A stretch of DNA of 43,583 bases from assembly GCA_012646105.1 (NCBI GenBank), contig GCA_012646105.1_4328.1, one strand, 5' to 3'. A program made the position numbers and the translations under genes. Source of the DNA: a phage. This document shows positions 9,436 to 23,105 of this stretch, piece by piece. Positions within the stretch are counted from its first letter, which is position 1. Every line of letters starts with the position of its first letter. The notes beneath the pieces were generated by a model, which saw nothing but the letters and a program-made list of their open reading frames with translations, searched no databases and was not told the DNA's origin.

Positions 9436-10566
9436 ATGGCCCAGAAGAAAATAACCGACGAACAGTTGCAGGAAGAATTGAACGCCGGGATGAAGAATAT
9501 CGACATCGCCCGTAAATACGGCATCTCAGACCGCGTTATTCGTATTCGTAAAGCAAAACTAGCTAAGAAAGGCGTAGGCCACGGGCGTGACGTCAGTCAC
9601 CTTGTGCCAGACGGCTACAAGATTAAAGGCACGTCGTCACTGGTGGACGAGTTCGGCAACACTAAGTTGCAATGGGTTAAGACCGACACTGACGCCGAAC
9701 GTCAGGTCGAGTTGATGAAAGCCGTAATCGAGGGCATGAAGTCAGAGATTAAACCGGTTGCGCCTGTTAAAGCGGCCCGAGCCAAACGTGACGATAAACT
9801 ACTCAATCTTTACACTGTATCTGATTTCCATCTCGGTATGCTGGCCTGGGCTGACGAGAGCGGCGACGACTGGGACATGAGGATTGCGGAAGACCTGTTC
9901 TCCCTCTGGTTCGATGCGGCGTTTCAGAAAGCGCCAGATGCAGGAACAGGGGTTATTAACCTGCTGGGCGACCTTGCGCACTTCGATAGTCTGGATGCCG
10001 TTACCCCAGCGAGCGGTCATATTCTTGACGCTGACACGCGCTACCAGAAACTGGTCCGCTACATGATTCGTATGGTCCGCCGTGTTGTCGATATGGCCCT
10101 CGTTAAGCATAAAAATGTTCGCCTGCTTATCGTGCAAGGGAACCACGACGAAAGTGGAATGATTTGGTTAGCTGAGATGTTCAGTACGCTGTACGACAAT
10201 GAGCCTCGTGTGTTCGTCGATACGTCACCGGATGTTTACAAGATGGTGCAACACGGCAAAACTACGCTGTTCTTCCATCACGGGCATAAAGCACGATTCG
10301 ACGCTATTGAACCGGTTATGATTGCCAAGTTCCGCAAAGCGTTCGGCGAAAGCGAGTACAGCTACGCCCATGTAGGGCACCTGCACCATCAGAAGATTGT
10401 AGAAAGCCGTAACATGATTGTTGAACAACACCGCACATTAGCGGCAAAAGATGCCTACGCCTCCCGCGGCGGATGGATGTCGGGCCGTAGCGCAAACGTA
10501 ATTACTTATAGCGCCGAATATGGCGAGATCGCACGTTTAACGATTTCACCGGAGATGCTGGGATGA
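9436..10566 (+). CDS. N-terminal HTH fused to calcineurin-like metallophosphoesterase (376 aa)
   Basis: HTH-like segment aa 18-45; phosphoesterase motifs D130-x-H132, G178-D179, G235-N-H-D238, H281-H-G-H284, G314-H-L-H317; RBS AGGAAG upstream. Confidence 0.7.
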   Translation: MAQKKITDEQLQEELNAGMKNIDIARKYGISDRVIRIRKAKLAKKGVGHGRDVSHLVPDGYKIKGTSSLVDEFGNTKLQWVKTDTDAERQVELMKAVIEGMKSEIKPVAPVKAARAKRDDKLLNLYTVSDFHLGMLAWADESGDDWDMRIAEDLFSLWFDAAFQKAPDAGTGVINLLGDLAHFDSLDAVTPASGHILDADTRYQKLVRYMIRMVRRVVDMALVKHKNVRLLIVQGNHDESGMIWLAEMFSTLYDNEPRVFVDTSPDVYKMVQHGKTTLFFHHGHKARFDAIEPVMIAKFRKAFGESEYSYAHVGHLHHQKIVESRNMIVEQHRTLAAKDAYASRGGWMSGRSANVITYSAEYGEIARLTISPEMLG

Positions 10567-10989: not shown

Positions 10990-12162
10990 TTATGCGTAGG
11001 TGATACGCTGGATAACGATAGACGACTGGTACTGATTGCCTGTGGACTGCCCTTCTATACTCTGGGTTATTGATTCCGGGCCAGATATTTCTGGGGTGAC
11101 CGCCGTAAGCTCTGCGCGTTTCAGACTAAAAGACATGGCCCCATTTACCCCCGCCAGAATAGAGTTAATCTCCACCTGCTGCTCGTTGATAAACTTCTGA
11201 ATCATCACCATGTCGTACAGCTTGCCGGAGATGGAGAAGGTATTAGCCGCGCGACCACGTTCCACGAACGCAACGCTACTGTTGCCTAGTTCGAACTGAG
11301 CAGATGCGCCGTTGTCGTTGGTGATGGTCAGAGTATCGCAACGCAACGGCGTAGAACCGTCGAACACAGACACATCTACAGATGAGAACGGCTCGTCAGT
11401 GAACGTAACCCGGGAGAAGTCGGAACCTGCTGGCGGCTCGGTGAGAATTTCCTGACTCAGACCGATGAACGGGAAGCTGCCTGTCACCATCGCGTTCACG
11501 GCCTGCTCGATAGTAAAACCGGAGATTTCCACGCCTTTGGTCAACATGTACGCGCTAGGGTTCCCGCACTGTCCTTTGAACCATGTCAGGATAGAGAACG
11601 TCTTACATGCGTTACCTGTTTCCAGTTTATCCCCGGTCTTAGCCTTACTGGTTTTTGTCTCTGTCGTCAGCGTGTGCTGAATGCCAGCGCCTGTTACTAC
11701 GAGCGCCTCGACCGCGGTCACGATAAACGGTTTTGCGTTGTCGCCGGTTAAGTCGGTGAATGCAATCAGGTCGCCAACCTCTACACCGTCAGCAATGAAG
11801 CTACCGGCAGCGCGGGTGAATGTTTTACCTGCTGGAGCGACCGTAATTTCAGCACCCGTAATCTCTACCCCATCCTGCCACGTAGAAGTCATAGCACCCG
11901 CAAGGAAATCATCCTGGCTACGTGAGCTAAGTTCGATGGCGTACTCCCCGCTAACCTGTTTGTTACCGGTGCGGATGGATGTGGTTTCTCTGCTGCCGTC
12001 GAGTTCGTTGGAAGTCAGCGCATCACGGGTTACCGCGGGAACACCGCCGGTGTTACGCAACGGCGACCATACCGGGTTACTTGGTGTTACGCCCGGGGTA
12101 ACTTCCGCCACATAGAATTGCGCGGTATTCGCGCCCTTAAAAGGAGTTGTAGCCATATTCAC
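10990..12162 (-). CDS. major tail (tube) protein (390 aa)
   Basis: size, Thr/Ser/Gly-rich beta-type composition, position upstream of chaperones, terminator directly downstream. Confidence 0.6.
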   Translation of the reverse strand: MNMATTPFKGANTAQFYVAEVTPGVTPSNPVWSPLRNTGGVPAVTRDALTSNELDGSRETTSIRTGNKQVSGEYAIELSSRSQDDFLAGAMTSTWQDGVEITGAEITVAPAGKTFTRAAGSFIADGVEVGDLIAFTDLTGDNAKPFIVTAVEALVVTGAGIQHTLTTETKTSKAKTGDKLETGNACKTFSILTWFKGQCGNPSAYMLTKGVEISGFTIEQAVNAMVTGSFPFIGLSQEILTEPPAGSDFSRVTFTDEPFSSVDVSVFDGSTPLRCDTLTITNDNGASAQFELGNSSVAFVERGRAANTFSISGKLYDMVMIQKFINEQQVEINSILAGVNGAMSFSLKRAELTAVTPEISGPESITQSIEGQSTGNQYQSSIVIQRITYA

Positions 12163-13417: not shown

Positions 13418-14008
13418 TCAAGCGGCCTCCAGTCTCGAGATAACCAGTAGCGCCGACGGTGCCGTACCCCATGAGGTTACTGTAGCCGCTTGTGGGTATA
13501 CACCGCCGAAGTTGGCCCCGGCGCTATCCCGCATAATCTGAACGGCAAACGTCTGGCCTGCGGTTGGGTTAATAACGACGCGGGACTCAATAGGAATTGT
13601 TATGTCGACGCTGACTATTTTTGTGGCAGCGGGAGAGCCGTACTGAGCACCGTTGATGAGGATGCGCGATAACAGGATAGATGTACCGCTCGCTCCAGTG
13701 CGCCCCGCCTGTAACTTGATGCGGACGGCATAATTACCCGCAGCATTAAGCATTACCGGGTCAGATGCGCTACCCTGAGCAGAGCCGAAAGTTAACTGCA
13801 ATGCTGTATCTACTGCGGCGGGCGCTTGCGCTACTGTTGACGCTGCGCGGAGAACTTCAACCTCTTTAACACCGGGAGTGGCGTAAATAGGTGAGTCCGC
13901 CATCTGGGTTAATACCCCGCGCAGCTTCGCTGGCGTGATAAGTCCGGTCGTGTTGTCTGGTAGCTCGGAACCGATTAGCGTGAATATCTCTGTTTTAGTA
14001 TTCGCCAT
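13418..14008 (-). CDS. structural protein of unknown role (196 aa)
   Basis: six-frame ORF within connector block. Confidence 0.45.
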   Translation of the reverse strand: MANTKTEIFTLIGSELPDNTTGLITPAKLRGVLTQMADSPIYATPGVKEVEVLRAASTVAQAPAAVDTALQLTFGSAQGSASDPVMLNAAGNYAVRIKLQAGRTGASGTSILLSRILINGAQYGSPAATKIVSVDITIPIESRVVINPTAGQTFAVQIMRDSAGANFGGVYPQAATVTSWGTAPSALLVISRLEAA

Positions 14009-14010
14009 TT

Positions 14011-14523
14011 TTAACCCCGGTACACGTTAAACGAGAAGCCATTGTTAAGACCGCCGCACAGTAACGGGCGTAAGGCGTCGTCCGCAGCCGTAATCGCGGT
14101 CGTAGCGCCACTGTTGCCGTTGTTGAAGTAGGTCACTGTCACTGCACCCTCGACACGCTCAGTCTGCACGGAACGGCCGTCTGAGTTAGCCCGCACTTCG
14201 GTGCCTGCGCCATACGTAACTGCGGCGATTACCTGCGCAAGAATTATCTGTTTCGGGATAACACTGTTCGCTACAGGGAAGCCATTTAACGTTACGCCGG
14301 TGCGAGGATACGCAAGAGACTGTTCTGCCGACACGCGTCTACCGCACATCTGCGGTTCTGCAAGCCCGACATAAGTAGCACCGTTGCGCAGGGCCACCTC
14401 TGCGGCGGTATCATCTGCCGGTAACTCAAGGCCATAATTAGCCGCTAACGCGCGGGCGTCAGCCAGGCTAATGTAACTGTCAGCGCCAGGTACTATTGAC
14501 CCATCTTCCACGATTAGCGGCAT
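14011..14523 (-). CDS. head-tail adaptor (gp6-like connector, position and N-terminus MPLIVEDGS...)
   Basis: 170 aa ORF downstream of capsid genes. Confidence 0.45.
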   Translation of the reverse strand: MPLIVEDGSIVPGADSYISLADARALAANYGLELPADDTAAEVALRNGATYVGLAEPQMCGRRVSAEQSLAYPRTGVTLNGFPVANSVIPKQIILAQVIAAVTYGAGTEVRANSDGRSVQTERVEGAVTVTYFNNGNSGATTAITAADDALRPLLCGGLNNGFSFNVYRG

Positions 14524-14526
14524 AAA

Positions 14527-14706
14527 TTATTCCTCTGACTTACGGCGGCGACGCTTAGTACCACCACCGTTGTTGTGCGCTTCTTCGCTGTCCGGTTGAA
14601 CCGCTACCAGTTCATCCGCTTCTACCGCACCGCGAACAGGCATCACCTGACCGTCAACAATATCAACGTGGGTGTACTTTTCACGGATTACATAATTATC
14701 TGCCAT
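14527..14706 (-). CDS. small hypothetical protein (59 aa, MADNYVIREKYTHVDIVDG...)
   Basis: below ORF-track size cut-off; hand translated; RBS AAGGAAAGG 6-8 nt upstream; fills gap between annotated genes. Confidence 0.4.
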   Translation of the reverse strand: MADNYVIREKYTHVDIVDGQVMPVRGAVEADELVAVQPDSEEAHNNGGGTKRRRRKSEE

Positions 14707-14720
14707 GACCTTTCCTTATT

Positions 14721-14738
14721 ACGGCCCCGAAGGGCCGT
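14721..14738 (-). other. intergenic stem-loop ACGGCCC-CGAA-GGGCCGT
   Basis: perfect 7 bp stem with tetraloop between decoration gene and 59 aa ORF; possible attenuator or processing site. Confidence 0.35.
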
Positions 14739-14742
14739 TGCA

Positions 14743-15087
14743 TTAAGACACAGTTGCTACGGTGCTACTGGAGATAATATTACCATATACATCGTGAACA
14801 ACCACTTTATACGTGCCGGAGTCGGCAGACGCGACAGTGGTGGCTTTGGTGTAGGTAGCCGCAGTAGCGCCCGCGATAGCGTTGTTGTTCTTGTACCACT
14901 GGTAAGTGTACGGAGCCAGACCGCCAGTTACGGTTACAGTAAGGGTTAGCGCGCCAGGTGAGCTTACTGCGGTAGTCGCCGCGAGTGGGGCGGAAAAAGA
15001 TGCAGGGGCGATATTCGCCATATCGATTTTAGCGCCTACGGTATCGGCGGACACACCGGTAATACGACGTTTGATTACATCAACCAT
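14743..15087 (-). CDS. Ig-like domain protein (probable capsid decoration, 114 aa)
   Basis: I-set-like pattern PYTYQWYKNN...SGTYKVVVHD. Confidence 0.55.
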   Translation of the reverse strand: MVDVIKRRITGVSADTVGAKIDMANIAPASFSAPLAATTAVSSPGALTLTVTVTGGLAPYTYQWYKNNNAIAGATAATYTKATTVASADSGTYKVVVHDVYGNIISSSTVATVS

Positions 15088-15098
15088 TTTTAAGCTCC

Positions 15099-15470
15099 TC
15101 AGGATGCGATGATTTTAGCGGCACGAAGTTGTGCCAGTAAGGCGTTAAGTTGAGTGCCTACCGCGTTAACCGCAGTCTGTGCGGACGTAGCAACCGCGGC
15201 AGCCTCTTCACCCGTAACGGTCTGCGTGCCGACGTCTGTAACCGCAGCACCCTGAACGAACTTATTTCCCGCCATCGCGGTAGTCGAAGTTGTTCCGATC
15301 GCAAGGCTTGACGTACCTGCACCAATAGCGGTACGTGCCGCCTCTTGGGTCGCCCCCTCGGCGATTACCGCCGGTTTACCTGTTACTTCTTCCCAGCCTA
15401 CGCTGATATCCAAGTCGCCGAAGTCAACATTCTGAAGGCTGCGCGGCAAGCCTTTTCCGGTCTTAGCCAT
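15099..15470 (-). CDS. Ala/Thr-rich head decoration or fibre-like protein (123 aa)
   Basis: low-complexity Ala/Thr/Gly-rich ORF directly downstream of major capsid gene. Confidence 0.45.
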   Translation of the reverse strand: MAKTGKGLPRSLQNVDFGDLDISVGWEEVTGKPAVIAEGATQEAARTAIGAGTSSLAIGTTSTTAMAGNKFVQGAAVTDVGTQTVTGEEAAAVATSAQTAVNAVGTQLNALLAQLRAAKIIAS

Positions 15471-15493
15471 AAATTACCTCTTAGTAAATGAAA

Positions 15494-15513
15494 AGAGGGA
15501 CCGAAGTCCCTCT
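15494..15513 (-). terminator. rho-independent terminator after major capsid gene
   Basis: AGAGGGAC-CGAA-GTCCCTCT perfect 8 bp stem followed by T-run on minus strand. Confidence 0.55.
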
Positions 15514-15529
15514 CGATTATATATTAACC

Positions 15530-16579
15530 TTAAGCACCGACACCAGTTACCAGAAATGCAATCGGTACATGCTTACGATCAACAACGCGGTTCCAGTTGG
15601 AGGCGTTCGCCAGGTCCTGCCAGGAGGCAGAACGTGCGACAGTCTCGGTGCCGTTGCCGGTGATTACCGCGCTTGTGAAGCTGTAACCAAACGGGTGCAG
15701 CAGCCAGGTCTTACGAGTCCACAGGGTTTCGACGCCACCACCGTTACCGCGAGACGCTTCGCGTTCGTATTCCAGCGGGTTGGACGGATTGCCTTCACCG
15801 TAACCGATAGCACCGTTGCCGAAGATGATAGAAATGAACTTACGGCTATCGCCAGTACCAACTACGGTCATGCTGTCGTCAACAATCACACGGTAGCCCT
15901 GGTAGGCGGCGAACAAGGTGTCGTTGTCGGCATCTTTGATGAAGTCGATAAGCTGCTGCTTACGCGCCTGCGCATAAACGAAGCTGTGCATCGCGATAGC
16001 GCCCAGCACTTCACCGCCGTTGCCCATCAGCGCATCACCCATAGTCTGGGTAGCGTCGATGAATGCGCCCGCGTCGAAGCCCAGAGAAGCAGACACGTCG
16101 ATAACCATATCGTTCTGCGTATGGTATTCATCGGTAGCGGCTACGTTGTCGTTGTACAGACCGAGCGCGGTAGCAATCAGACGGCGTTGCGCCTGGCGCT
16201 GCCAGAAGTTATCCAGACGGGCCGCTACGGAGCGCAGCGGCTGCTGGCTGGTCAGTTCGACGGTCAAATCCGCCTGGCCGAAACCTTCGTTCAGGTAAGC
16301 TACACGAACATCCATCTCACCGGTCTGCACGTTACGCGGGGTAGCGATGTCCTGGTATACGTCGTTCGAGTAGTTCGGCTCGATAGAGGTGTCAATCGCT
16401 TTCCAGTACGGCAGAACCGCTTTGTTGGACGGGCCGTTAGCGATAGCAGCGGCGTACGGAGTCTGGGTCAGAATACCGGACTGGAAGAACGCGGTTTTTT
16501 CTACCGGGTCCTCGGTCATGTAAGACAGAATTACCGATTCTTTACCAGTTACGATATCGCCAATAGTAGTAATTGCCAT
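15530..16579 (-). CDS. major capsid protein (349 aa)
   Basis: size and position after scaffold, terminator immediately downstream. Confidence 0.75.
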   Translation of the reverse strand: MAITTIGDIVTGKESVILSYMTEDPVEKTAFFQSGILTQTPYAAAIANGPSNKAVLPYWKAIDTSIEPNYSNDVYQDIATPRNVQTGEMDVRVAYLNEGFGQADLTVELTSQQPLRSVAARLDNFWQRQAQRRLIATALGLYNDNVAATDEYHTQNDMVIDVSASLGFDAGAFIDATQTMGDALMGNGGEVLGAIAMHSFVYAQARKQQLIDFIKDADNDTLFAAYQGYRVIVDDSMTVVGTGDSRKFISIIFGNGAIGYGEGNPSNPLEYEREASRGNGGGVETLWTRKTWLLHPFGYSFTSAVITGNGTETVARSASWQDLANASNWNRVVDRKHVPIAFLVTGVGA

Positions 16580-17283
16580 TATTTTTTCCTCAGGGCTTTA
16601 AGTTGCCGTTCAAATTCGGCAGGGTTCGATTCGTACAGAGCGATACGCTCCGCTTCACTCATGTCTTTAAACGCTGGTGCGGCCCCGCCGCCTTTGCCGC
16701 CGGAAGCCCCGCCGCCGGAAGCTGCATTTGCTTTAATCAAATGCGAAAACGCTTTGTGTTCACGCAGATATTTGCGGAACTGTTCCGGGTCAGTCGTGAT
16801 TACGTTGCCGTCTGCACCAACAAACTTAGTAACCACATCATCGCCTTCGAACTCAGTCTTAACGAACGGTGCAAGAATGTCCACTGCTTCAGGGGTGATA
16901 AAGTCGCCCGCGAAAGAGCCTAACACCGCTTTACGTTCGCTGCCGAGGATGCGCTCTGCCATTCTGGAGATGCGACCATCTTTCTCGGCTAACACCGGGT
17001 CATACTGGCTACGAATCGTCTTTTCGAACTCGTCCATCTTACCGGCGGCTTTTAACGCCTCCTGGTGTGCGCGCTGTCGTTCTTCTTCGGCCTCTTTTGC
17101 TTTACGGGCGGCTTCTTTCTTCTCCGCCAGCAATGCTTCCTGATTAGCCTTAAGCCCGGCCACTTCTTTCTCAATCAGCGCCTGAACTTCTTCAGCGGTG
17201 AACATTTTTGGCGCATCACCGCCACCAGCTTTATCTTCTGCCCCAGCTTCTTCCTGGAACGGATAACGTAAAAAACGATTCAT
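16579..17283 (-). CDS. scaffolding protein (start at ATG 17283; ORF-track start 17337 is TTG)
   Basis: charged coiled-coil-type sequence (EEVQALIEKEVAGLKANQEALLAEKKEAARKAKEAEEERQRAHQEALKAAGKMDE) directly upstream of capsid gene. Confidence 0.65.
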   Translation of the reverse strand: MNRFLRYPFQEEAGAEDKAGGGDAPKMFTAEEVQALIEKEVAGLKANQEALLAEKKEAARKAKEAEEERQRAHQEALKAAGKMDEFEKTIRSQYDPVLAEKDGRISRMAERILGSERKAVLGSFAGDFITPEAVDILAPFVKTEFEGDDVVTKFVGADGNVITTDPEQFRKYLREHKAFSHLIKANAASGGGASGGKGGGAAPAFKDMSEAERIALYESNPAEFERQLKALRKK

Positions 17284-17365
17284 AGTCAGTATGTCCCCTG
17301 GACGTTGGAACCCGGGCCACCCGGATTTACATGTCAAGAATAAATTATTCCAACATGCAAGGCAA

Positions 17366-17629
17366 CTATTCCAGAATATTCCTTACATAATCCTGCAGCA
17401 TGAACACCTTCAGGCGCAGTTGCCGTACACATTCGGCATTCTGAACATCGATAGCCAAATCCTCGTCGGCGTCGCTACTTGGCGTGGCCAGTTTGCACGG
17501 CGGCTGCATCATCGTCGTATCCGGGAATGGAATTGGCGTTTGCGACGGCGCGGGACTTGAGCAGGACGCGAGCATCATCGAAAGTGCACACGCTGCGGCC
17601 AGGCGTTCTAATGTACTTAACGACTTCAC
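17366..17629 (-). CDS. Rz1-like outer-membrane spanin lipoprotein (87 aa)
   Basis: signal peptide ending in lipobox LASC, Pro-rich mature region; ORF starts inside the i-spanin gene in another frame. Confidence 0.6.
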   Translation of the reverse strand: MKSLSTLERLAAACALSMMLASCSSPAPSQTPIPFPDTTMMQPPCKLATPSSDADEDLAIDVQNAECVRQLRLKVFMLQDYVRNILE

Positions 17630-17861
17630 GGGTAATCACCTCTGATTTCGTCTTGCCTTCGTTGTCAGCGGCGGCTGCCTTTGATTCGTCCTGCTGCTGC
17701 CGTTGTGTTTTCTTCGCTAACTCGGCCTGCGCTTCTTGCTGTTGCTGTGAAACGAGATTCGCCCGGCCTTCGTTCCAGCCGCTGCGGTATTGAAAGTAGC
17801 CGTGTGCGTAAGCCAGGATGATGAAACATGCTCCAGCTACGACAGTTGCTTTAAGATTCAT
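17475..17861 (-). CDS. Rz-like inner-membrane spanin (128 aa)
   Basis: N-terminal TMD (VVAGACFIILAYAHGYF), Gln/Glu/Ala-rich coiled coil, overlapping o-spanin ORF. Confidence 0.65.
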   Translation of the reverse strand: MNLKATVVAGACFIILAYAHGYFQYRSGWNEGRANLVSQQQQEAQAELAKKTQRQQQDESKAAAADNEGKTKSEVITREVVKYIRTPGRSVCTFDDARVLLKSRAVANANSIPGYDDDAAAVQTGHAK

Positions 17862-17885
17862 GTTTCTCCTTTCTCGATAAGTAAA

Positions 17886-17905
17886 GCCCCGCCTTAAAGC
17901 GGGGC
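17886..17905 (-). other. stem-loop GCCCCGC-CTTAAA-GCGGGGC about 25 nt upstream of spanin start
   Basis: 7 bp GC stem followed by T-rich tract on minus strand; putative attenuator or terminator. Confidence 0.35.
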
Positions 17906-18180
17906 GCTAGTCCTTATCATTTAAACACAGAAACGGCGTAATCTCAGTAAATCAGTTACTTTTTACACAAGCAATAGAGTATGGCCCTTCCGGACGCGTC
18001 AGCGTAACTACACTCAGGACTTACGTCCAGCTCCGTTACCTGCCCGCGACGCGGTCGCTTGTTCATACTTCACAAGCTCAGGTGGAGCTTAGCATATTTT
18101 TAGTGAAAAGTCAACTATTCGAATAGTTTATTCCAACATTTACAATTGAGTGGAATAACTGGAATGCGTAAACAAATAGT

Positions 18181-18209
18181 TTGCATACTCCAATATAATA
18201 GGGTACTAT
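18181..18209 (+). promoter_or_regulatory. promoter TTGCAT-N17-TACTAT with embedded operator-like palindrome
   Basis: -35 at 18181-18186, -10 at 18204-18209, RBS AGGAG at 18224-18228, ATG 18237. Confidence 0.5.
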
Positions 18210-18236
18210 TCAGTTAACTTAAACAGGAGATGAGAA

Positions 18237-18758
18237 ATGGTTACTACGGTAATTACTTTCCCTGCGTATGTAGGGGCGAAAATCTGCAGGGCTAAAAACG
18301 ATGTGCGCTACTATTTGAACGCTTTTTACATAGAACCTGAGGGGTTGATAGTGTCTACGGATGGGCATAGATTGTTCTGCGACAATGTGAAGACAAACGT
18401 TGAGAAAGGGGTTCTCATTGATATCAAAGGGAGAGAGCCTTCTAAATTTAACTACGCAGAGGTAGACCACGACAACGGCAGTGTTTCTTTCTATGACGAT
18501 AGTCGCGCGCTTATATGTACACTTCCGGTAGATGTTGTAGAAGGAAACTTTCCTGACTGGAGACGCGTGGCGCACATCACACCGGGTGTTGTCGATAGTA
18601 TAGGGTTCACTCTGCGTTATTTGGCAGACGCGTACAAGATTTCTAAGGCGTACAAAAATGAAATTTCTCGTTTCGATTTCCAGGACCAAACCAGAGGATG
18701 CAAAATATCATTTTCAAACACGGCCTTTATGGTGTTAATGCCCGCGCGATTTAAATAA
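18237..18758 (+). CDS. hypothetical protein (173 aa), counter-oriented insertion in head module
   Basis: strong RBS, own promoter and terminator; no motif recognised. Confidence 0.6.
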   Translation: MVTTVITFPAYVGAKICRAKNDVRYYLNAFYIEPEGLIVSTDGHRLFCDNVKTNVEKGVLIDIKGREPSKFNYAEVDHDNGSVSFYDDSRALICTLPVDVVEGNFPDWRRVAHITPGVVDSIGFTLRYLADAYKISKAYKNEISRFDFQDQTRGCKISFSNTAFMVLMPARFK

Positions 18759-18762
18759 AACT

Positions 18763-18783
18763 AAGGCCCCGTTAAGGGGCCTT
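18763..18783. terminator. bidirectional rho-independent terminator
   Basis: AAGGCCCC-GTTAA-GGGGCCTT perfect 8 bp stem, A/T runs on both sides. Confidence 0.6.
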
Positions 18784-18786
18784 ATA

Positions 18787-19248
18787 TCATTCTGGTTTGG
18801 TGACCTTCGCCGCTTTACTGACGGCCTCTACACCATCGGCATCAGTAACTTTAACGAAGTATTCACCCACCGCGTTAACCGTCAGAGACAAAGCCTCTTC
18901 CGGGGCGTTTACTACTTCCTTACCATCTTTGTACCAGGTCAGAACATACGGCGCTTTGCCTGCCTTAACTTCGACAGTGATAGTTGCGCTGCCGTCTACC
19001 AATTCAGTGTCTTTCGGTTGCATAGAGAAATACACATCGCCAGCATCGGCCAGATACGGAATCTCGTAAAGCATGCCCGCCGCTGGCAGCGCAATACCGG
19101 TTTTATCCGCAAACGGCATCTCGTCTACAGGCGAACCTAGTACACTTTCGTCCTCAATAAATACCACGTTCTCGCCGGAGCCAGACACACGGGCGTACTG
19201 GACTACGCGACGTGACGGCACATCAGTTACTTTGAAAAAGCCCATCAT
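18787..19248 (-). CDS. structural protein with C-terminal Ig-like domain (153 aa)
   Basis: PYVLTWYKDGKEV...GEYFVKVTDADG I-set-like pattern. Confidence 0.5.
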   Translation of the reverse strand: MMGFFKVTDVPSRRVVQYARVSGSGENVVFIEDESVLGSPVDEMPFADKTGIALPAAGMLYEIPYLADAGDVYFSMQPKDTELVDGSATITVEVKAGKAPYVLTWYKDGKEVVNAPEEALSLTVNAVGEYFVKVTDADGVEAVSKAAKVTKPE

Positions 19249-20324
19249 TATTCCCCTTTCAGATAATCAGCAACACGTTTATCGAGTTCCGCCATCTGCT
19301 TAAGCGTCAGCGGATTCCCGAAACCATCTACAGATATTACGCGAAACTCTTCCGGTGATATACCGCTGTTGCGGAAAATCTTACCGCGTGTCGGCCCGAG
19401 TGCTTCATCCTGAAACCATGCCGGTTGTTGTTTCAGGAACTCGTAATAGGTGGTGTCAGCGCTTACCTGAGTACCACCGTCCGCACCTTTAGCCACGCGT
19501 TTTGCGCCCTTATCGAGGAAGTCGAGCTCCGAACTGATTACAGGCGCAGTGGTGCTTCTGCACCCAAAATGGGCCGGTGGCATCGGCCCCTTACCGATTT
19601 CCCACGTCATTCCGTCTCTGGCTCTGCAAATCGTGCTGGTGCGGCTGTCCAGCGTCGACACCCACTCGTACTTCTCGATGATGTCGTCGTTCTGACGGTA
19701 CGTCTCGTTACGGGCTTCGTTGGATACGTGAGATAGCGCGGTGCGGATTACGGTGGCCGCGTTACGTTCAGAGATGTCAGCCAGTCCGCCAGCGCCTACG
19801 ACATTCTTAACAATCTGCCGTGTTGTCTGGCCCTGTACAAAGCCCATCTTAACGCCGGTTACGAGGCGCGCGACTTCGGTTTCACCCCAACCTGACATCA
19901 GCTTAGTGAAATCAACAGGCTTGTCGTTCAACGCCAGAGGTTGAAACTCGGCGGCGGCCCACACCTGTTCGACGGTAGGCGTAACAAATTCCGCGTTAAC
20001 GTTAGCGGTCAGTGTCTTTACGTTCCACTCGGCCTCATACGCCGCCAGTTCCTTAAGGTCTTCTGTCAGCTTTGTTTGCCAGTCACCTGTAAGTCCCGCC
20101 AGTGCTTCTTCGAGGTCACGTAACAGTTTATTCAGTCGCGCAGTGCTGCGACCGTCGTCACCGAATAGCAGAACCTGCCGTTTGATTTCGTCTCGCATCT
20201 CCTGAATAAACGGCGTAAGGTCTTTCACTTCGCCGGATGCGGTGCGTTGCAGCCATATCTGGTGGCTGATTAGAGATGTAAGTAAGCTCATAGATAAACC
20301 CTGTGGTGCTAAAGTTAATAGCAT
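19248..20324 (-). CDS. head morphogenesis / minor capsid protein (358 aa)
   Basis: position directly downstream of portal gene, size. Confidence 0.6.
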   Translation of the reverse strand: MLLTLAPQGLSMSLLTSLISHQIWLQRTASGEVKDLTPFIQEMRDEIKRQVLLFGDDGRSTARLNKLLRDLEEALAGLTGDWQTKLTEDLKELAAYEAEWNVKTLTANVNAEFVTPTVEQVWAAAEFQPLALNDKPVDFTKLMSGWGETEVARLVTGVKMGFVQGQTTRQIVKNVVGAGGLADISERNAATVIRTALSHVSNEARNETYRQNDDIIEKYEWVSTLDSRTSTICRARDGMTWEIGKGPMPPAHFGCRSTTAPVISSELDFLDKGAKRVAKGADGGTQVSADTTYYEFLKQQPAWFQDEALGPTRGKIFRNSGISPEEFRVISVDGFGNPLTLKQMAELDKRVADYLKGE

Positions 20325-20360
20325 ACTATAAGAAAGCCCCTTTCGGGGCTATATGCGAAC

Positions 20361-21842
20361 TTACGGTTGAGCGGTATCTTGTGGTTGCGCCGACTGCGGA
20401 ATCTCTCCTGCTACCCGAGCAACAGCACCTACCGGCAGCGGAGCGTCCTCGATAGCGTTCTGAATGTCCTCGTCGGTCCAGTCAGTTACACCGGCCTTAC
20501 GCAACGCAGCATAATAAGCGGTGGCGGGCAGCAAGCCAGCGTTAATATCCGCCATCCACTGAGAACGGTCCTGAGCTGTCATCGGTTGCAGGAAGAACTC
20601 CATATTCAGCTTGAACTCAATCTCTGTGCCTTCACGCAGCCCTAGCATCGCAGCCACCCAGCGCAATGCATCGGTGTACGCCATGCTTACGTTACGTGCG
20701 ATTGTCGCCATAACAGACGTATCCGCTCCGCGTTGCAGGCGGGCCGATTCCGCGGTGATTTGCTGCGTCGGGGTGATAAGCTGCGCCCCAATCTGGATGG
20801 CCTGATTCTCTTTATCGAGCATGTTCTGTTTGGCAAGGTTGTTCTCCCCAGCCTGGACCAGAAACGCATTGCCGCCGTAACCGATGTTATGGCCCGAACG
20901 CGACCCCATGCGCACGCCGTGTGGGTTAGCCTCTTTCCACTGTTCCATGCTCATGTTCTCGCCGGGGGCGATAAACAGCGTGGGCTGGCCTACAACGAAG
21001 CTCGACTCCTCATTGTCCGCGCTGTTGCGGAAATGCCCAATATTAAGCTCAGCCAACGGCAGCAAAGGCGCGTCGTCAATGGTTGCGTCGTTGTTGCTCG
21101 CCCCAATGAACGTGAAGGGGATTTTGCCGCGCAACTGTTCGCCGAGTTCCGGGAAGATTTCGATTACTTCATCCTGGGCGCCACCTTCGGCATCGAAGCG
21201 GTAAATGCGCTGGCGGTAGCGCCCGTCAATCAAATCGAGAACACGGTATTGTTCTCCGAACTTGGTTTCGAACTCTGTTCCAGGTTCAGAGTATTCCCAT
21301 ACTTCGCGCAACACGACCATTGTCACACGGTTAACTGAGCCAACACGGGTAAGTCGCCAGTTGATGATGTTCTCCGCAGTGTAGAATGCGATTACCGGGT
21401 TTAATAATCCTGCGTTCTGCTCTGCCGCCGTTGCCGCGGCGGTCTCCGGGGCGTCAACCAGCAACCCGCCACGGCCAACCGAGTCAATCTCCATAAGCGT
21501 ATCCTGCGCGTGCTGCCACAGCCCGACACCGGAACCGTCGGCATTACGTAGCAGATATTCCATCTCAGGCGGGATAATCTGCTCGGGGTCTTTGCGCATC
21601 ACGGACCCGACCATCCCGGCCAGGGTACGTTTAGTGAAGTTGTAGCAGATAGCTCCGTTCTCGTATTCTTCCTGGCGCTGCGCTGCGTAGGTAGGGTCCG
21701 GCTCGTTCTTCCCAACGTTGCGCAGATAGCGAATAAGGTCGCCTTCCAGTGCGTGGCGTACCTTCTGCCATTTATCGAAGTGATGCAGCCATTCCAGGTG
21801 TTTAGTCTTAACACCCTGATTCTGACCGTTCATAGTTAACAT
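20361..21842 (-). CDS. portal protein (493 aa)
   Basis: size, position downstream of terminase large subunit. Confidence 0.8.
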   Translation of the reverse strand: MLTMNGQNQGVKTKHLEWLHHFDKWQKVRHALEGDLIRYLRNVGKNEPDPTYAAQRQEEYENGAICYNFTKRTLAGMVGSVMRKDPEQIIPPEMEYLLRNADGSGVGLWQHAQDTLMEIDSVGRGGLLVDAPETAAATAAEQNAGLLNPVIAFYTAENIINWRLTRVGSVNRVTMVVLREVWEYSEPGTEFETKFGEQYRVLDLIDGRYRQRIYRFDAEGGAQDEVIEIFPELGEQLRGKIPFTFIGASNNDATIDDAPLLPLAELNIGHFRNSADNEESSFVVGQPTLFIAPGENMSMEQWKEANPHGVRMGSRSGHNIGYGGNAFLVQAGENNLAKQNMLDKENQAIQIGAQLITPTQQITAESARLQRGADTSVMATIARNVSMAYTDALRWVAAMLGLREGTEIEFKLNMEFFLQPMTAQDRSQWMADINAGLLPATAYYAALRKAGVTDWTDEDIQNAIEDAPLPVGAVARVAGEIPQSAQPQDTAQP

Positions 21843-21854
21843 TGAATAATCCTC

Positions 21855-23105
21855 TTAAAGTGCGAAAGTCACCGGGATGTTGATTACTGGTTTAACCACC
21901 GGCATCTCGTAAACTACAGGATAGCCGAGCGCATCTGCCATATGGTCGATGATGCCATCTTTAGCTGGCTCTCCGTTATCGTCGTAAGCCTGCTGCTCCA
22001 GCGTCTTCGCTATCTCGGGGCATAAGTGGTCGTTAACCCACAGCTTACCTTTTTCCAGCGCGGTATTCACGGCTAAAACACGGTCTTTAACCGGGGGGTT
22101 GGCGGATTTAGCGCGAACATCGAAACCGGCCTGCTGGAGTAATGCAATATCTGAGATTGACGCCGAGTTGGTCTTGCGGTTCTTGCCGCTGGCGTCGGGG
22201 TAAACGACGATGCGGTGGCCCTGCGACTTCCACTTCTCAGTAATTACGCGCACGGTGTCTGGCGTGTCAAACAAGCCTTTCAGTTCTGCCACCGCGTGCC
22301 AGCCATCCTTACGCTGCACATACACGGCGCTGGCGTTCTTTGTAACGTTGAAGTCCTGCCCGATGTACAGCGTGTCGCCTGGTTGAATTGTCTCTTTGCT
22401 GCGGTGCTTACGGCGATCGTAGGCGTAATACACGCTGCCGGAGGTAAGGTTGACGAACTCACCATTCAGATACGCGTTAATCAACTGCGCAGGGTAAGTC
22501 TCGGTCAGTGAGCTAATGTAGTCAGGCGGCAGGAATCGCGCGTTCTCGTGTGTAGAAGCCTGAACCATTGAGTAACTCGGCGTCGGGTTCTCTTTGAACT
22601 TGGCGTATACGAACTTGAACCCTTCCGGCGTCGTGGTGACGGAGATGTGGTTAATTACCCCCGGAATAACAAGACGCATACGGGCTACGATTTTGTTCCA
22701 CGCCATCTCGGCTTTCTCGCGGCTCAGTACATCGAGCTCATCCACGACAGCAGCCGCGATTTTGAAGCCGACTATCGAGCCGGGGTTATCCATCGAACGG
22801 CAGATAACGGTCCCGAGCACCGTCTTACCGCGGGTAACCACGACTTCTTTGTCGCCGGATTTAACCAGCACATCAAGGCCAAGCAGGTTAGCCGCTTCCT
22901 CGAATGTTGGGTAGAAGATGTCACGGATAGCCGGGTATGTCGGGCCGAAGTAGCCCAGGCGCGTACCGGGGTGTTTGAGCATGAACGTAAGCAGGTCGAG
23001 GCAACCAACAAATGTCTTGCCGCTTCCGAAGCCGCCGACATAGGCTTTGTATTTGTTATCGCAATTCAGGAACAGAGCCTGTGGTGCGGATAGCTGAATA
23101 CTCAT
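21855..23105 (-). CDS. terminase large subunit (416 aa)
   Basis: Walker A-like GGFGSGKT near N-terminus, acidic nuclease-type C-terminal half, position. Confidence 0.85.
   Translation of the reverse strand: MSIQLSAPQALFLNCDNKYKAYVGGFGSGKTFVGCLDLLTFMLKHPGTRLGYFGPTYPAIRDIFYPTFEEAANLLGLDVLVKSGDKEVVVTRGKTVLGTVICRSMDNPGSIVGFKIAAAVVDELDVLSREKAEMAWNKIVARMRLVIPGVINHISVTTTPEGFKFVYAKFKENPTPSYSMVQASTHENARFLPPDYISSLTETYPAQLINAYLNGEFVNLTSGSVYYAYDRRKHRSKETIQPGDTLYIGQDFNVTKNASAVYVQRKDGWHAVAELKGLFDTPDTVRVITEKWKSQGHRIVVYPDASGKNRKTNSASISDIALLQQAGFDVRAKSANPPVKDRVLAVNTALEKGKLWVNDHLCPEIAKTLEQQAYDDNGEPAKDGIIDHMADALGYPVVYEMPVVKPVINIPVTFAL

Follow-up and report, generated by a model that had tools for sequence, protein, structure and literature searches.

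Two Ig-like domain proteins in the structural module of a Kagunavirus-type phage as candidate virion-surface accessories with different attachment sites

Among the structural genes of the phage contig GCA_012646105.1_4328.1 (NCBI GenBank assembly GCA_012646105.1), a stretch of 43,583 bp that is referred to here as the window, two small minus-strand open reading frames (ORFs) encode proteins that join a conserved N-terminal part to one C-terminal immunoglobulin (Ig)-like domain, namely ORF-A (14743..15087, 114 amino acids) and ORF-B (18787..19248, 153 amino acids). On a modest balance of probability, we regard both as small accessories of the virion surface, in which an N-terminal anchor carries an Ig display domain of the kind known from T5 pb10 and the Hoc proteins, and which are attached at different sites. 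Both are real, conserved genes: ORF-A occurs in 458 phage records, all of them Guernseyvirinae-type, and ORF-B in 489, which are Guernseyvirinae-type with a few Serratia, Hafnia and Enterobacter phages in addition, and the two are strictly syntenic within the structural module across hundreds of genomes. Each also matches a PHROG family end to end, ORF-A phrog_4069 (8.2e-48, residues 1-114 to profile positions 1-116 of 116) and ORF-B phrog_3945 (5.3e-86, residues 2-153 to positions 1-152 of 152). The finding of two Ig-like domain proteins in the head module, already proposed by the initial annotation of the window, is correct; it is also ordinary, and existing annotations already record it. 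Phage structural proteins with Ig-like domains are common and well described, and its importance reaches little beyond correct annotation. What the present analysis adds is the distinction between an Ig protein linked to the type of capsid protein (ORF-A) and one independent of it (ORF-B), together with a warning about names that state a location in the virion.

The strings from which the Ig-like domains had been suspected, YTYQWYKNNNAIAGATAATYTKATTVASADSGTYKVVVHD in ORF-A and VLTWYKDGKEVVNAPEEALSLTVNAVGEYFVKVTD in the C-terminal half of ORF-B, do occur in these two minus-strand genes at the coordinates given above, and sequence, profile and predicted fold agree on a single Ig-like domain per protein, at residues 28-114 of ORF-A (14746..15006) and 73-153 of ORF-B (18790..19032). 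The label "I-set-like" that had been attached to them holds as a description of Ig fold and homology and fails as a statement of Pfam membership, the scores lying under the gathering cut-offs both in ORF-A (Ig_3 PF13927 26.1 bits against a cut-off of 30, Ig_2 PF13895 23.8 against 27, I-set PF07679 17.3 against 23.7) and in ORF-B (Ig_3 20.7 against 30, I-set 13.6 against 23.7); only the short SprB repeat clears its Pfam cut-off in ORF-A, with 31 against 28, and the precomputed Pfam matches of close homologues include PF13927, PF13895 and PF07679. Structure prediction, which together with a domain search had been suggested as the check, gives an Ig-like fold for both proteins. In the AlphaFold2 models, made with shallow alignments, residues ~45-114 of ORF-A are moderately confident (block predicted local distance difference test, pLDDT, 63-88), with strands at residues 46-50, 61-66, 78-82, 91-98 and 104-113, and residues 71-153 of ORF-B form a confident beta-sandwich (block pLDDT 69-92). 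Foldseek searches of the PDB match both models to Ig domains with probability 1.00 (Axl, Robo, titin, MALT1 and CD22, besides phage decoration proteins), superposed at root-mean-square deviations of 1.9-3.5 Å over ~80-95 columns; the top matches of ORF-A are the decoration proteins of phages N4 and Moo19, and ORF-B matches these two as well as the Ig domains of Axl, Robo and titin, all with probability 1.00. In BFVD, most matches of the Ig-like domain of ORF-B are Hoc, outer-capsid, decoration and tail proteins. Both proteins have the core tryptophan in strand C and, ahead of strand F, the D-x-G-x-Y motif; no variation is seen at W64, D89, G91 and Y93 among the members of the ORF-A family, or at W105, G128 and Y130 among those of the ORF-B family. 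Both proteins lack cysteine and hence a B-F disulphide, which is commonly missing from the Ig-like domains of phages and bacteria. When the whole window was translated in six frames, its two Ig-like domains were seen to match each other (E ~6e-6; 43% identity over 30 residues by BLASTP) and nothing else, and no further domain of the same family, for example on the tail tube, was found by this search. The Ig-like assignment of both proteins is thereby confirmed, by sequence comparison and predicted models, far beyond chance.

Among the known decoration proteins, T5 pb10 (PDB 5LXK, 8ZVI) shares the layout of the two window proteins, being small, with an N-terminal non-Ig part and one C-terminal Ig-like domain, and with 164 amino acids it nearly equals ORF-B (153) in length. 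Its Ig homology is readily found in ORF-A, both from the single sequence (E = 4e-15 and 6e-14 for 8zvi and 5lxk) and in motif, where ALTLSVTATGGTGPYTYAW..DAGSYKVTVTD of pb10 stands against ALTLTVTVTGGLAPYTYQW..DSGTYKVVVHD of ORF-A. The alignment begins at residue 28 of ORF-A and residue 72 of pb10, where the pb10 Ig domain starts, so that only ~27 residues precede the Ig domain of ORF-A and a globular capsid-binding domain is absent from it. Against full-length pb10 (8zvi_a, 164 amino acids), ORF-A covers residues 72-154 and ORF-B residues 87-155, and a homologue of the N-terminal capsid-binding domain of pb10 was detected, in tests confined to the sequence level, in neither protein; the ~70-residue N-terminal domain of ORF-B is restricted to its own lineage. 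Searched as a single sequence against the PDB, ORF-A further matches 9ncf_S (7.7e-27) and Sf14 gp20 (9c2d_S, 1.6e-24), and a profile built from 14 family members finds 9ncf_S (8e-32), Sf14 gp20 (4e-28), T5 pb10 (1.7e-16) and N4 gp17 (7.5e-07). ORF-B matches a titin Ig domain (8e-10) and pb10 (0.006) as a single sequence, and with its family profile the best match is again pb10, weakly (E = 4e-4), all matches falling within profile positions 72-144. By these scores the Ig-like domain of ORF-A is a close homologue of those of T5 pb10 and Sf14 gp20, and that of ORF-B a more distant one.

The Hoc-like proteins (T4 Hoc, gp20 of Shigella phage Sf14 as chain S of 9C2D, and chain S of 9NCF) belong to the same Ig-domain sequence family and differ in architecture, Hoc and gp20 having three tandem Ig-like domains and 9ncf_S four, with a globular capsid-binding domain in addition, whereas the window proteins have one Ig-like domain each. 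The capsid-binding domain of T4 Hoc is C-terminal and the non-Ig part of ORF-A and ORF-B is N-terminal, which departs from the Hoc architecture; Hoc-like proteins other than T4 Hoc have their capsid-binding domain at the N-terminal end, and Sf14 gp20 is a Hoc-like protein that sits at the hexamer centres (PMC11821841). The best phage structural matches of both models are N4 gp17 (the "32 kDa protein", 9E99/9LBZ) and the Moo19 Ig-like decoration protein (9D7Z), with Foldseek probability 1.00, a query-normalised TM-score of 0.42-0.51 and 22-38% identity over ~80-97 columns; these proteins are larger (279 and 273 amino acids), belong to podophages with T=9 capsids, and match by their Ig part alone. 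By analogy, ORF-A and ORF-B may both act as Ig-display accessories in the manner of the pb10/Hoc class.

The putative anchors are the N-terminal parts. In ORF-A this is a conserved peptide of residues 1-27 (15007..15087), in which many positions are invariant and the mean column entropy (residues 1-30, 120 homologues) is 0.33 bit versus 0.47 bit in the Ig part. In ORF-B it is a domain of ~70 amino acids (residues 1-72, 19033..19248), where the entropy is 0.41 bit versus 0.62 bit in the Ig part (~120 homologues). The greater conservation of the N-terminal part in both proteins is as would be expected of a constrained anchor that carries a freer, exposed domain. Sequence and profile searches found no Pfam, NCBIfam or PDB relative of the ORF-B N-terminal domain, and an exhaustive search of 1.84 billion representative proteins gave only 11 matches. 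Three of these were discounted as a repeat protein (P0248), a low-complexity protein (P0251) and a chimeric assembly (P0250); the genuine ones are proteins of ~129-154 amino acids, with the same architecture in three of four, and shorter fragments. In one protein (P0048) an N-terminal domain of the Kagunavirus-type ORF-B is joined to an Ig-like domain of the Jerseyvirus type, a product of recombination within ORF-B.

The two genes do indeed lie in the head module, ORF-B directly after the gene for the MuF/SPP1 gp7-type head morphogenesis protein (19248..20324, minus strand; Pfam PF04233 1.2e-12, phrog_241 7.5e-155) and ORF-A after the capsid and fibre-like genes and before the head-tail adaptor. 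In the string TAATG (19246..19250, minus strand) the last base of the MuF stop codon is also the first of the ORF-B start codon, an overlap which suggests that the two genes may be translationally coupled, and the same junction is found in Hafnia phage TS33 and in locus L018. ORF-B follows MuF in every relative examined, the synteny being kept in Snoke, EcoPhCCP1, T102, TS33 and Eta.

The distinction between the two proteins emerges from a comparison of related loci, for which 63 IMG/VR loci encoding ORF-B relatives and the phages T102, TS33 and Eta were assembled and each neighbouring gene was scored against the window; the loci were found through ORF-B, so that its presence in all of them proves nothing by itself. 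In the 57 loci that span ORF-B through the adaptor gene, ORF-A accompanies only one type of major capsid protein. It is present in 42 of the 43 loci with a capsid protein of the window type (at least 80% identical), in none of the five with an Eta-like capsid protein (37% identical) and in none of the nine with a TS33-like one (no tblastn hit), that is, in 42/43 versus 0/14 loci (Fisher p = 2e-12, uncorrected for relatedness). The TS33-like variants have neither fibre gene nor ORF-A, the capsid gene being followed at once by a small gene and the adaptor. The single locus with a window-type capsid protein and no full ORF-A (L034) has a match that covers 56% of the protein and an unusually long gap of 597 nucleotides between the capsid gene and ORF-A, possibly by truncation or insertion. 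In four of the 43 window-type loci ORF-A follows 65 nucleotides after the capsid gene and the fibre gene is absent, and ORF-A is therefore independent of the fibre-like protein.

Two other readings of ORF-A were tried and dropped. A fusion of the two products, fibre-like protein and ORF-A, by frameshifting was rejected, the ORF-A frame being open only 13 nucleotides upstream of the fibre stop codon, near which no canonical slippery heptamer was seen; ORF-A has its own Shine-Dalgarno sequence, GAGGAG (15095..15100, minus strand, read from the sequence), which overlaps that stop codon, and in four relatives it directly follows the capsid gene with the fibre gene absent. Nor was the fibre-like protein kept as an anchor for ORF-A, given the four loci just mentioned and the persistence of ORF-A in most relatives, where the fibre gene is replaced past its first 16-30 residues.

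ORF-B behaves differently. In six Kagunavirus-like loci (L013, L014, L018, L026, L028 and L042) it is 92-97% identical to that of the window despite a scaffold-capsid pair of the TS33-like type (e.g. L018, 11329..12981). MuF, ORF-B and adaptor are 91-98% identical to those of the window in the same six loci, the portal is 81-83% identical, and the swapped scaffold is ~57-61% identical. Conversely, two loci (L059 and L061) combine a divergent ORF-B, with 58-64% identity in its N-terminal domain, with a window-type capsid protein (85-86%) and ORF-A. In Salmonella phage SETP13 (L033, 4845..5300) an ORF-B of the Kagunavirus type (93-95%) lies within a Jerseyvirus backbone, which shows that ORF-B can move alone. 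The identity of the ORF-B N-terminal domain follows that of portal, MuF and adaptor to a similar degree (Spearman 0.74-0.77), the correlation with the capsid protein being weaker (0.47). A co-evolution of this domain with one particular partner was considered and set aside, as the near-equal correlations and the exchange of ORF-B on its own do not allow a single partner to be named.

By these patterns ORF-A behaves as part of the capsid-protein module, and the most economical reading is that the conserved ~27 residues at its N-terminus hold it on the shell of the 349-amino-acid capsid protein, without depending on the neighbouring fibre-like protein. The ~70-amino-acid N-terminal domain of ORF-B probably docks elsewhere than on the capsid protein's variable exterior, for which its place at the end of the terminase-portal-MuF run, the overlap with the MuF stop codon and its indifference to the capsid type all speak; our best guess is a portal-proximal or neck component. 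The designation "head shell decoration" thus has a good basis in the case of ORF-A and a questionable one in that of ORF-B, and the indifference to capsid type argues weakly against a binding of ORF-B at hexamer centres. Both proteins are probably non-essential.

Several observations weigh against this explanation. The N-terminal parts of both AlphaFold2 models, including the ORF-B N-terminal domain, have low confidence (pLDDT <50). The co-occurrence of ORF-A with one capsid type may reflect mere physical linkage, the capsid gene lying within ~450 nucleotides and the statistic being uncorrected for phylogeny. The TS33-like capsid protein, of 322 amino acids, is 27% identical to that of the window over 197 amino acids (E = 0.003, BLASTP) and still belongs to phrog_247 (1.4e-62) as a remote homologue, so that ORF-B could recognise some structural element of the shell, with its HK97-type lattice, that is common to both types; a reading of the swapped capsid protein as non-homologous was rejected on this account, which makes the argument from the capsid swap weaker. 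The same Ig family also decorates tail tubes (Sf11 gp24 and other phrog_290 members), and for this reason an Ig domain alone says nothing about the location in the virion. No direct evidence on the virion location of either protein was found in the literature, a paper of 2026 terms the Guernseyvirinae structurally uncharacterised, and a presence in the virion is suggested by gene position and by one unspecific proteomic data set. In this set, from Jerseyvirus T102, mass spectrometry that reported peptides for nearly all function-annotated proteins also detected the endolysin and does not tell virion proteins from contaminants. For Serratia phage Eta, only gel bands of at least 38 kDa were identified, including the 12-copy portal protein, and the 16.6-kDa ORF-B homologue gp44 is not among the identified bands, which speaks, if weakly, against many copies of ORF-B per virion.

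The strongest rival, which we consider unlikely, holds that both proteins are classical shell decorations of the pb10/Hoc type, with the N-terminal part bound to the capsid lattice, for example at hexamer centres, and the Ig-like domain pointing outward. It is in line with the existing annotation: phrog_4069 and phrog_3945 are both named "Hoc-like head decoration", a bioinformatic label and not a tested function; annotations of the Pharokka type call both homologues "Hoc-like head decoration protein"; and relatives 82-97% identical are annotated as capsid decoration proteins, as in the curated record of Snoke (2019), where both homologues are "capsid decoration protein" on the cited basis of pb10 and RB49 Hoc. 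The closest solved relatives of the Ig-like domains are capsid decoration proteins, ORF-B shares size and layout with pb10, and the divergent capsid proteins are still members of phrog_247. The high identity of ORF-B in the loci where the capsid protein is replaced by a 27%-identical one speaks against it, as do the absence of sequence similarity between the N-terminal domains of ORF-B and pb10 and the position of ORF-B at the end of the terminase-portal-MuF run, apart from the scaffold and capsid genes. The Eta gel, in which the band of the small homologue went unidentified and that of the 12-copy portal did not, counts against it as well, as a weak point.

Many GenBank records give homologues the names "neck whiskers", "fibritin" and "tail protein"; that one of the proteins, or each of them, has its place on the neck or tail, as these names say, is rather improbable. 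Names in the records are inconsistent and range from tail protein, tailspike, major tail protein, fibritin and neck whiskers to Hoc-like head decoration and Ig-like domain-containing protein, and two of the chains behind them illustrate how far they can be trusted. The "putative neck whiskers protein gp24" chain (9OCC) that both proteins match is the Sf11 tail tube protein, with its C-terminal part unmodelled, and the "tail protein" chain 9c2d_S belongs to 9C2D, the virion-capsid model of Sf14, for whose capsid the only Ig-domain protein described is gp20, a Hoc-like capsid decoration protein (PMC11821841). The names of location have spread through similarity of Ig domains, and as statements of virion location they are unreliable. 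The Pfam, PHROG and PDB matches of ORF-A and ORF-B are of the Ig type and include no fibritin-type family, and both models are beta-rich and without long helices, unlike the elongated trimeric whisker proteins of the fibritin type. ORF-A, moreover, lies within the head block before the adaptor and occurs with one type of capsid protein only. A tail location does have a precedent in Sf11 gp24, where residues ~155-225 match ORF-A (E = 1.5e-05) and ORF-B (E = 6e-04) by profile; in gp24 and in members of phrog_290 and phrog_158 the Ig-like domain is fused to the tail-tube protein, whereas the window carries its Ig-like domains on separate small proteins of the head block. ORF-A matches phrog_290 at positions 332-398, from which it follows that in some members the tail tube carries an Ig-like domain of the ORF-A type; the window's own tail tube protein (10990..12162, minus strand) matches phrog_290 only to position 329 of 411, without the Ig-like domain. 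The independence of ORF-B from the capsid type would fit a neck location.

That neither protein is a virion component, both being assembly factors or accessory genes with an incidental Ig-like domain, is very improbable: the literature search found no specific virion proteomics and no cryo-electron microscopy (cryo-EM) structure of any Guernseyvirinae capsid, and the overlap of the ORF-B start with the stop of a morphogenesis gene would suit co-translation with it, but single Ig-like domains of this sequence family have so far been found in phages on structural proteins, both genes keep a strict synteny inside the structural module in hundreds of genomes, and by inference peptides of both homologues were present in purified T102 particles. 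In that study of T102, purified in caesium chloride (CsCl), the reported peptides covered every ORF with an annotated function apart from 5, 45 and 54, and the list of detected proteins would include ORF17 ("neck whiskers protein"), which is the ORF-B homologue (68%), and ORF22 ("putative Hoc protein"), the ORF-A homologue (63%). A study of phage JSSK01 identified the coat protein alone.

The window is a complete-looking genome of a siphophage of the Kagunavirus type (Guernseyvirinae; an Escherichia coli phage). Its region 14000-20400 is 90-94% identical in DNA to the Escherichia phages fFiEco02, EcoPhCCP1, Snoke and many others, and is matched by 485 phage records, nearly all of Salmonella or Escherichia phages. 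The structural genes on the minus strand follow the order terminase, portal, MuF, ORF-B, spanins, scaffold, capsid, fibre-like gene, ORF-A, a gene of 59 amino acids and adaptor. The large terminase (21855..23105) and the portal (20361..21842) lead the first run, which is closed by a strong, bidirectional Rho-independent terminator directly 3' of ORF-B (18762..18784, minus strand), common to ORF-B and to a convergent gene on the plus strand; Snoke and phage Eta have a terminator at the same place after the ORF-B homologue. After the spanins (17366..17861, minus strand) and the scaffold (16579..17337, minus strand), the major capsid protein of 349 amino acids (15530..16579, minus strand; phrog_247 2.6e-115) is followed by a terminator-like hairpin (15493..15514, minus strand) ahead of the fibre-like and ORF-A genes, probably an attenuator, at a position where a terminator is annotated in Snoke. 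The fibre-like "head fiber" gene (15099..15470, minus strand, 123 amino acids; phrog_1954 6.9e-46, phrog_5711 "head fiber" 6e-07) is mosaic, with the first 16-30 residues kept in most relatives and the remainder replaced, the match to Snoke amounting to 24 residues; residues ~18-80 of its product resemble the "head fiber" proteins of Bxz1-group Mycobacterium phages as well as Gordonia and Klebsiella phage proteins. The gene of 59 amino acids lies between ORF-A and the head-tail adaptor (14011..14523, minus strand), and further connector genes separate the adaptor from the tail tube gene, in a region where a neck-region protein of 196 amino acids is encoded at 13418..14008.

Some features of these surroundings deserve mention in their own right. 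The convergent gene on the plus strand between ORF-B and the spanins (18237..18758) encodes a half-size, beta-clamp-like protein of 173 amino acids, for which the labels conflict: phrog_3007 is a "RusA-like resolvase" (7.8e-37) and phrog_947 a "DNA polymerase processivity factor" (2e-08), the Pfam match to DNA_pol3_beta_2 is weak, and the annotation in Snoke is sliding clamp; EcoPhCCP1 has no such gene annotated at that position. An i-spanin of 128 amino acids (phrog_2536 1.5e-54) is encoded in the midst of the head genes, with ORF-B on one side and the scaffold gene on the other, and the ORF that overlaps it in another frame (17366..17629) corresponds to the o-spanin with lipobox annotated in Snoke. 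A gene of 376 amino acids on the plus strand (9436..10566), which matches "DNA repair exonuclease" (phrog_704 4.8e-167), lies between the tail tube and tape-measure genes, on the strand opposite to the surrounding tail-gene block. An ORF of 551 amino acids (15488..17143, plus strand), which covers the antisense strand of the capsid gene and of some of the scaffold gene in phase with the capsid codons, is probably not a real gene and reflects the avoidance of TTA, CTA and TCA codons in a highly expressed one. The head block of relatives has also received mobile insertions that are absent from the window, namely an intein of 273 residues in the MuF protein of Snoke (L002, 6679..8538), an amidase gene between MuF and portal in EcoPhCCP1 (L001, 7559..8212) and an HNH endonuclease in fFiEco02 and others.

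As to what the Ig-like domains may do, exposed domains of this kind in T4 Hoc and similar proteins bind glycans weakly and aid host finding or persistence in mucus. By analogy, those of ORF-A and ORF-B would give the virion a weak, multivalent hold on glycans, for example those of host O-antigen, capsule or mucus, and could in this way raise the rate of encounter for a group of phages using surface glycans as receptors. Surface adhesion or environmental sensing, and not capsid stabilisation, is the role that has been proposed for Hoc-like proteins (PMC11821841), and the Guernseyvirinae do depend on surface glycans, O-antigen or capsule, as receptors (PMC11990801). Should the phage turn out to need neither protein, their anchor-plus-Ig layout could be employed for surface display on phages of the genus Kagunavirus, in use as small chassis in synthetic biology (PMC11990801). 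A more tentative extension, which we hold possible and no better than that, is that ORF-B represents a portal-proximal or neck display of an Ig-like domain on an undescribed anchor of 70 residues that is universal in siphophages of the Guernseyvirinae/Sarkviridae type, irrespective of their capsid protein, and that it forms, with ORF-A, attached by its ~27-residue peptide to a single capsid-protein type, and the mosaic head-fibre gene, a set of three surface-display modules that are exchanged separately. When a Guernseyvirinae virion is first solved by cryo-EM, ORF-A and ORF-B would be predicted to appear as two different cases.

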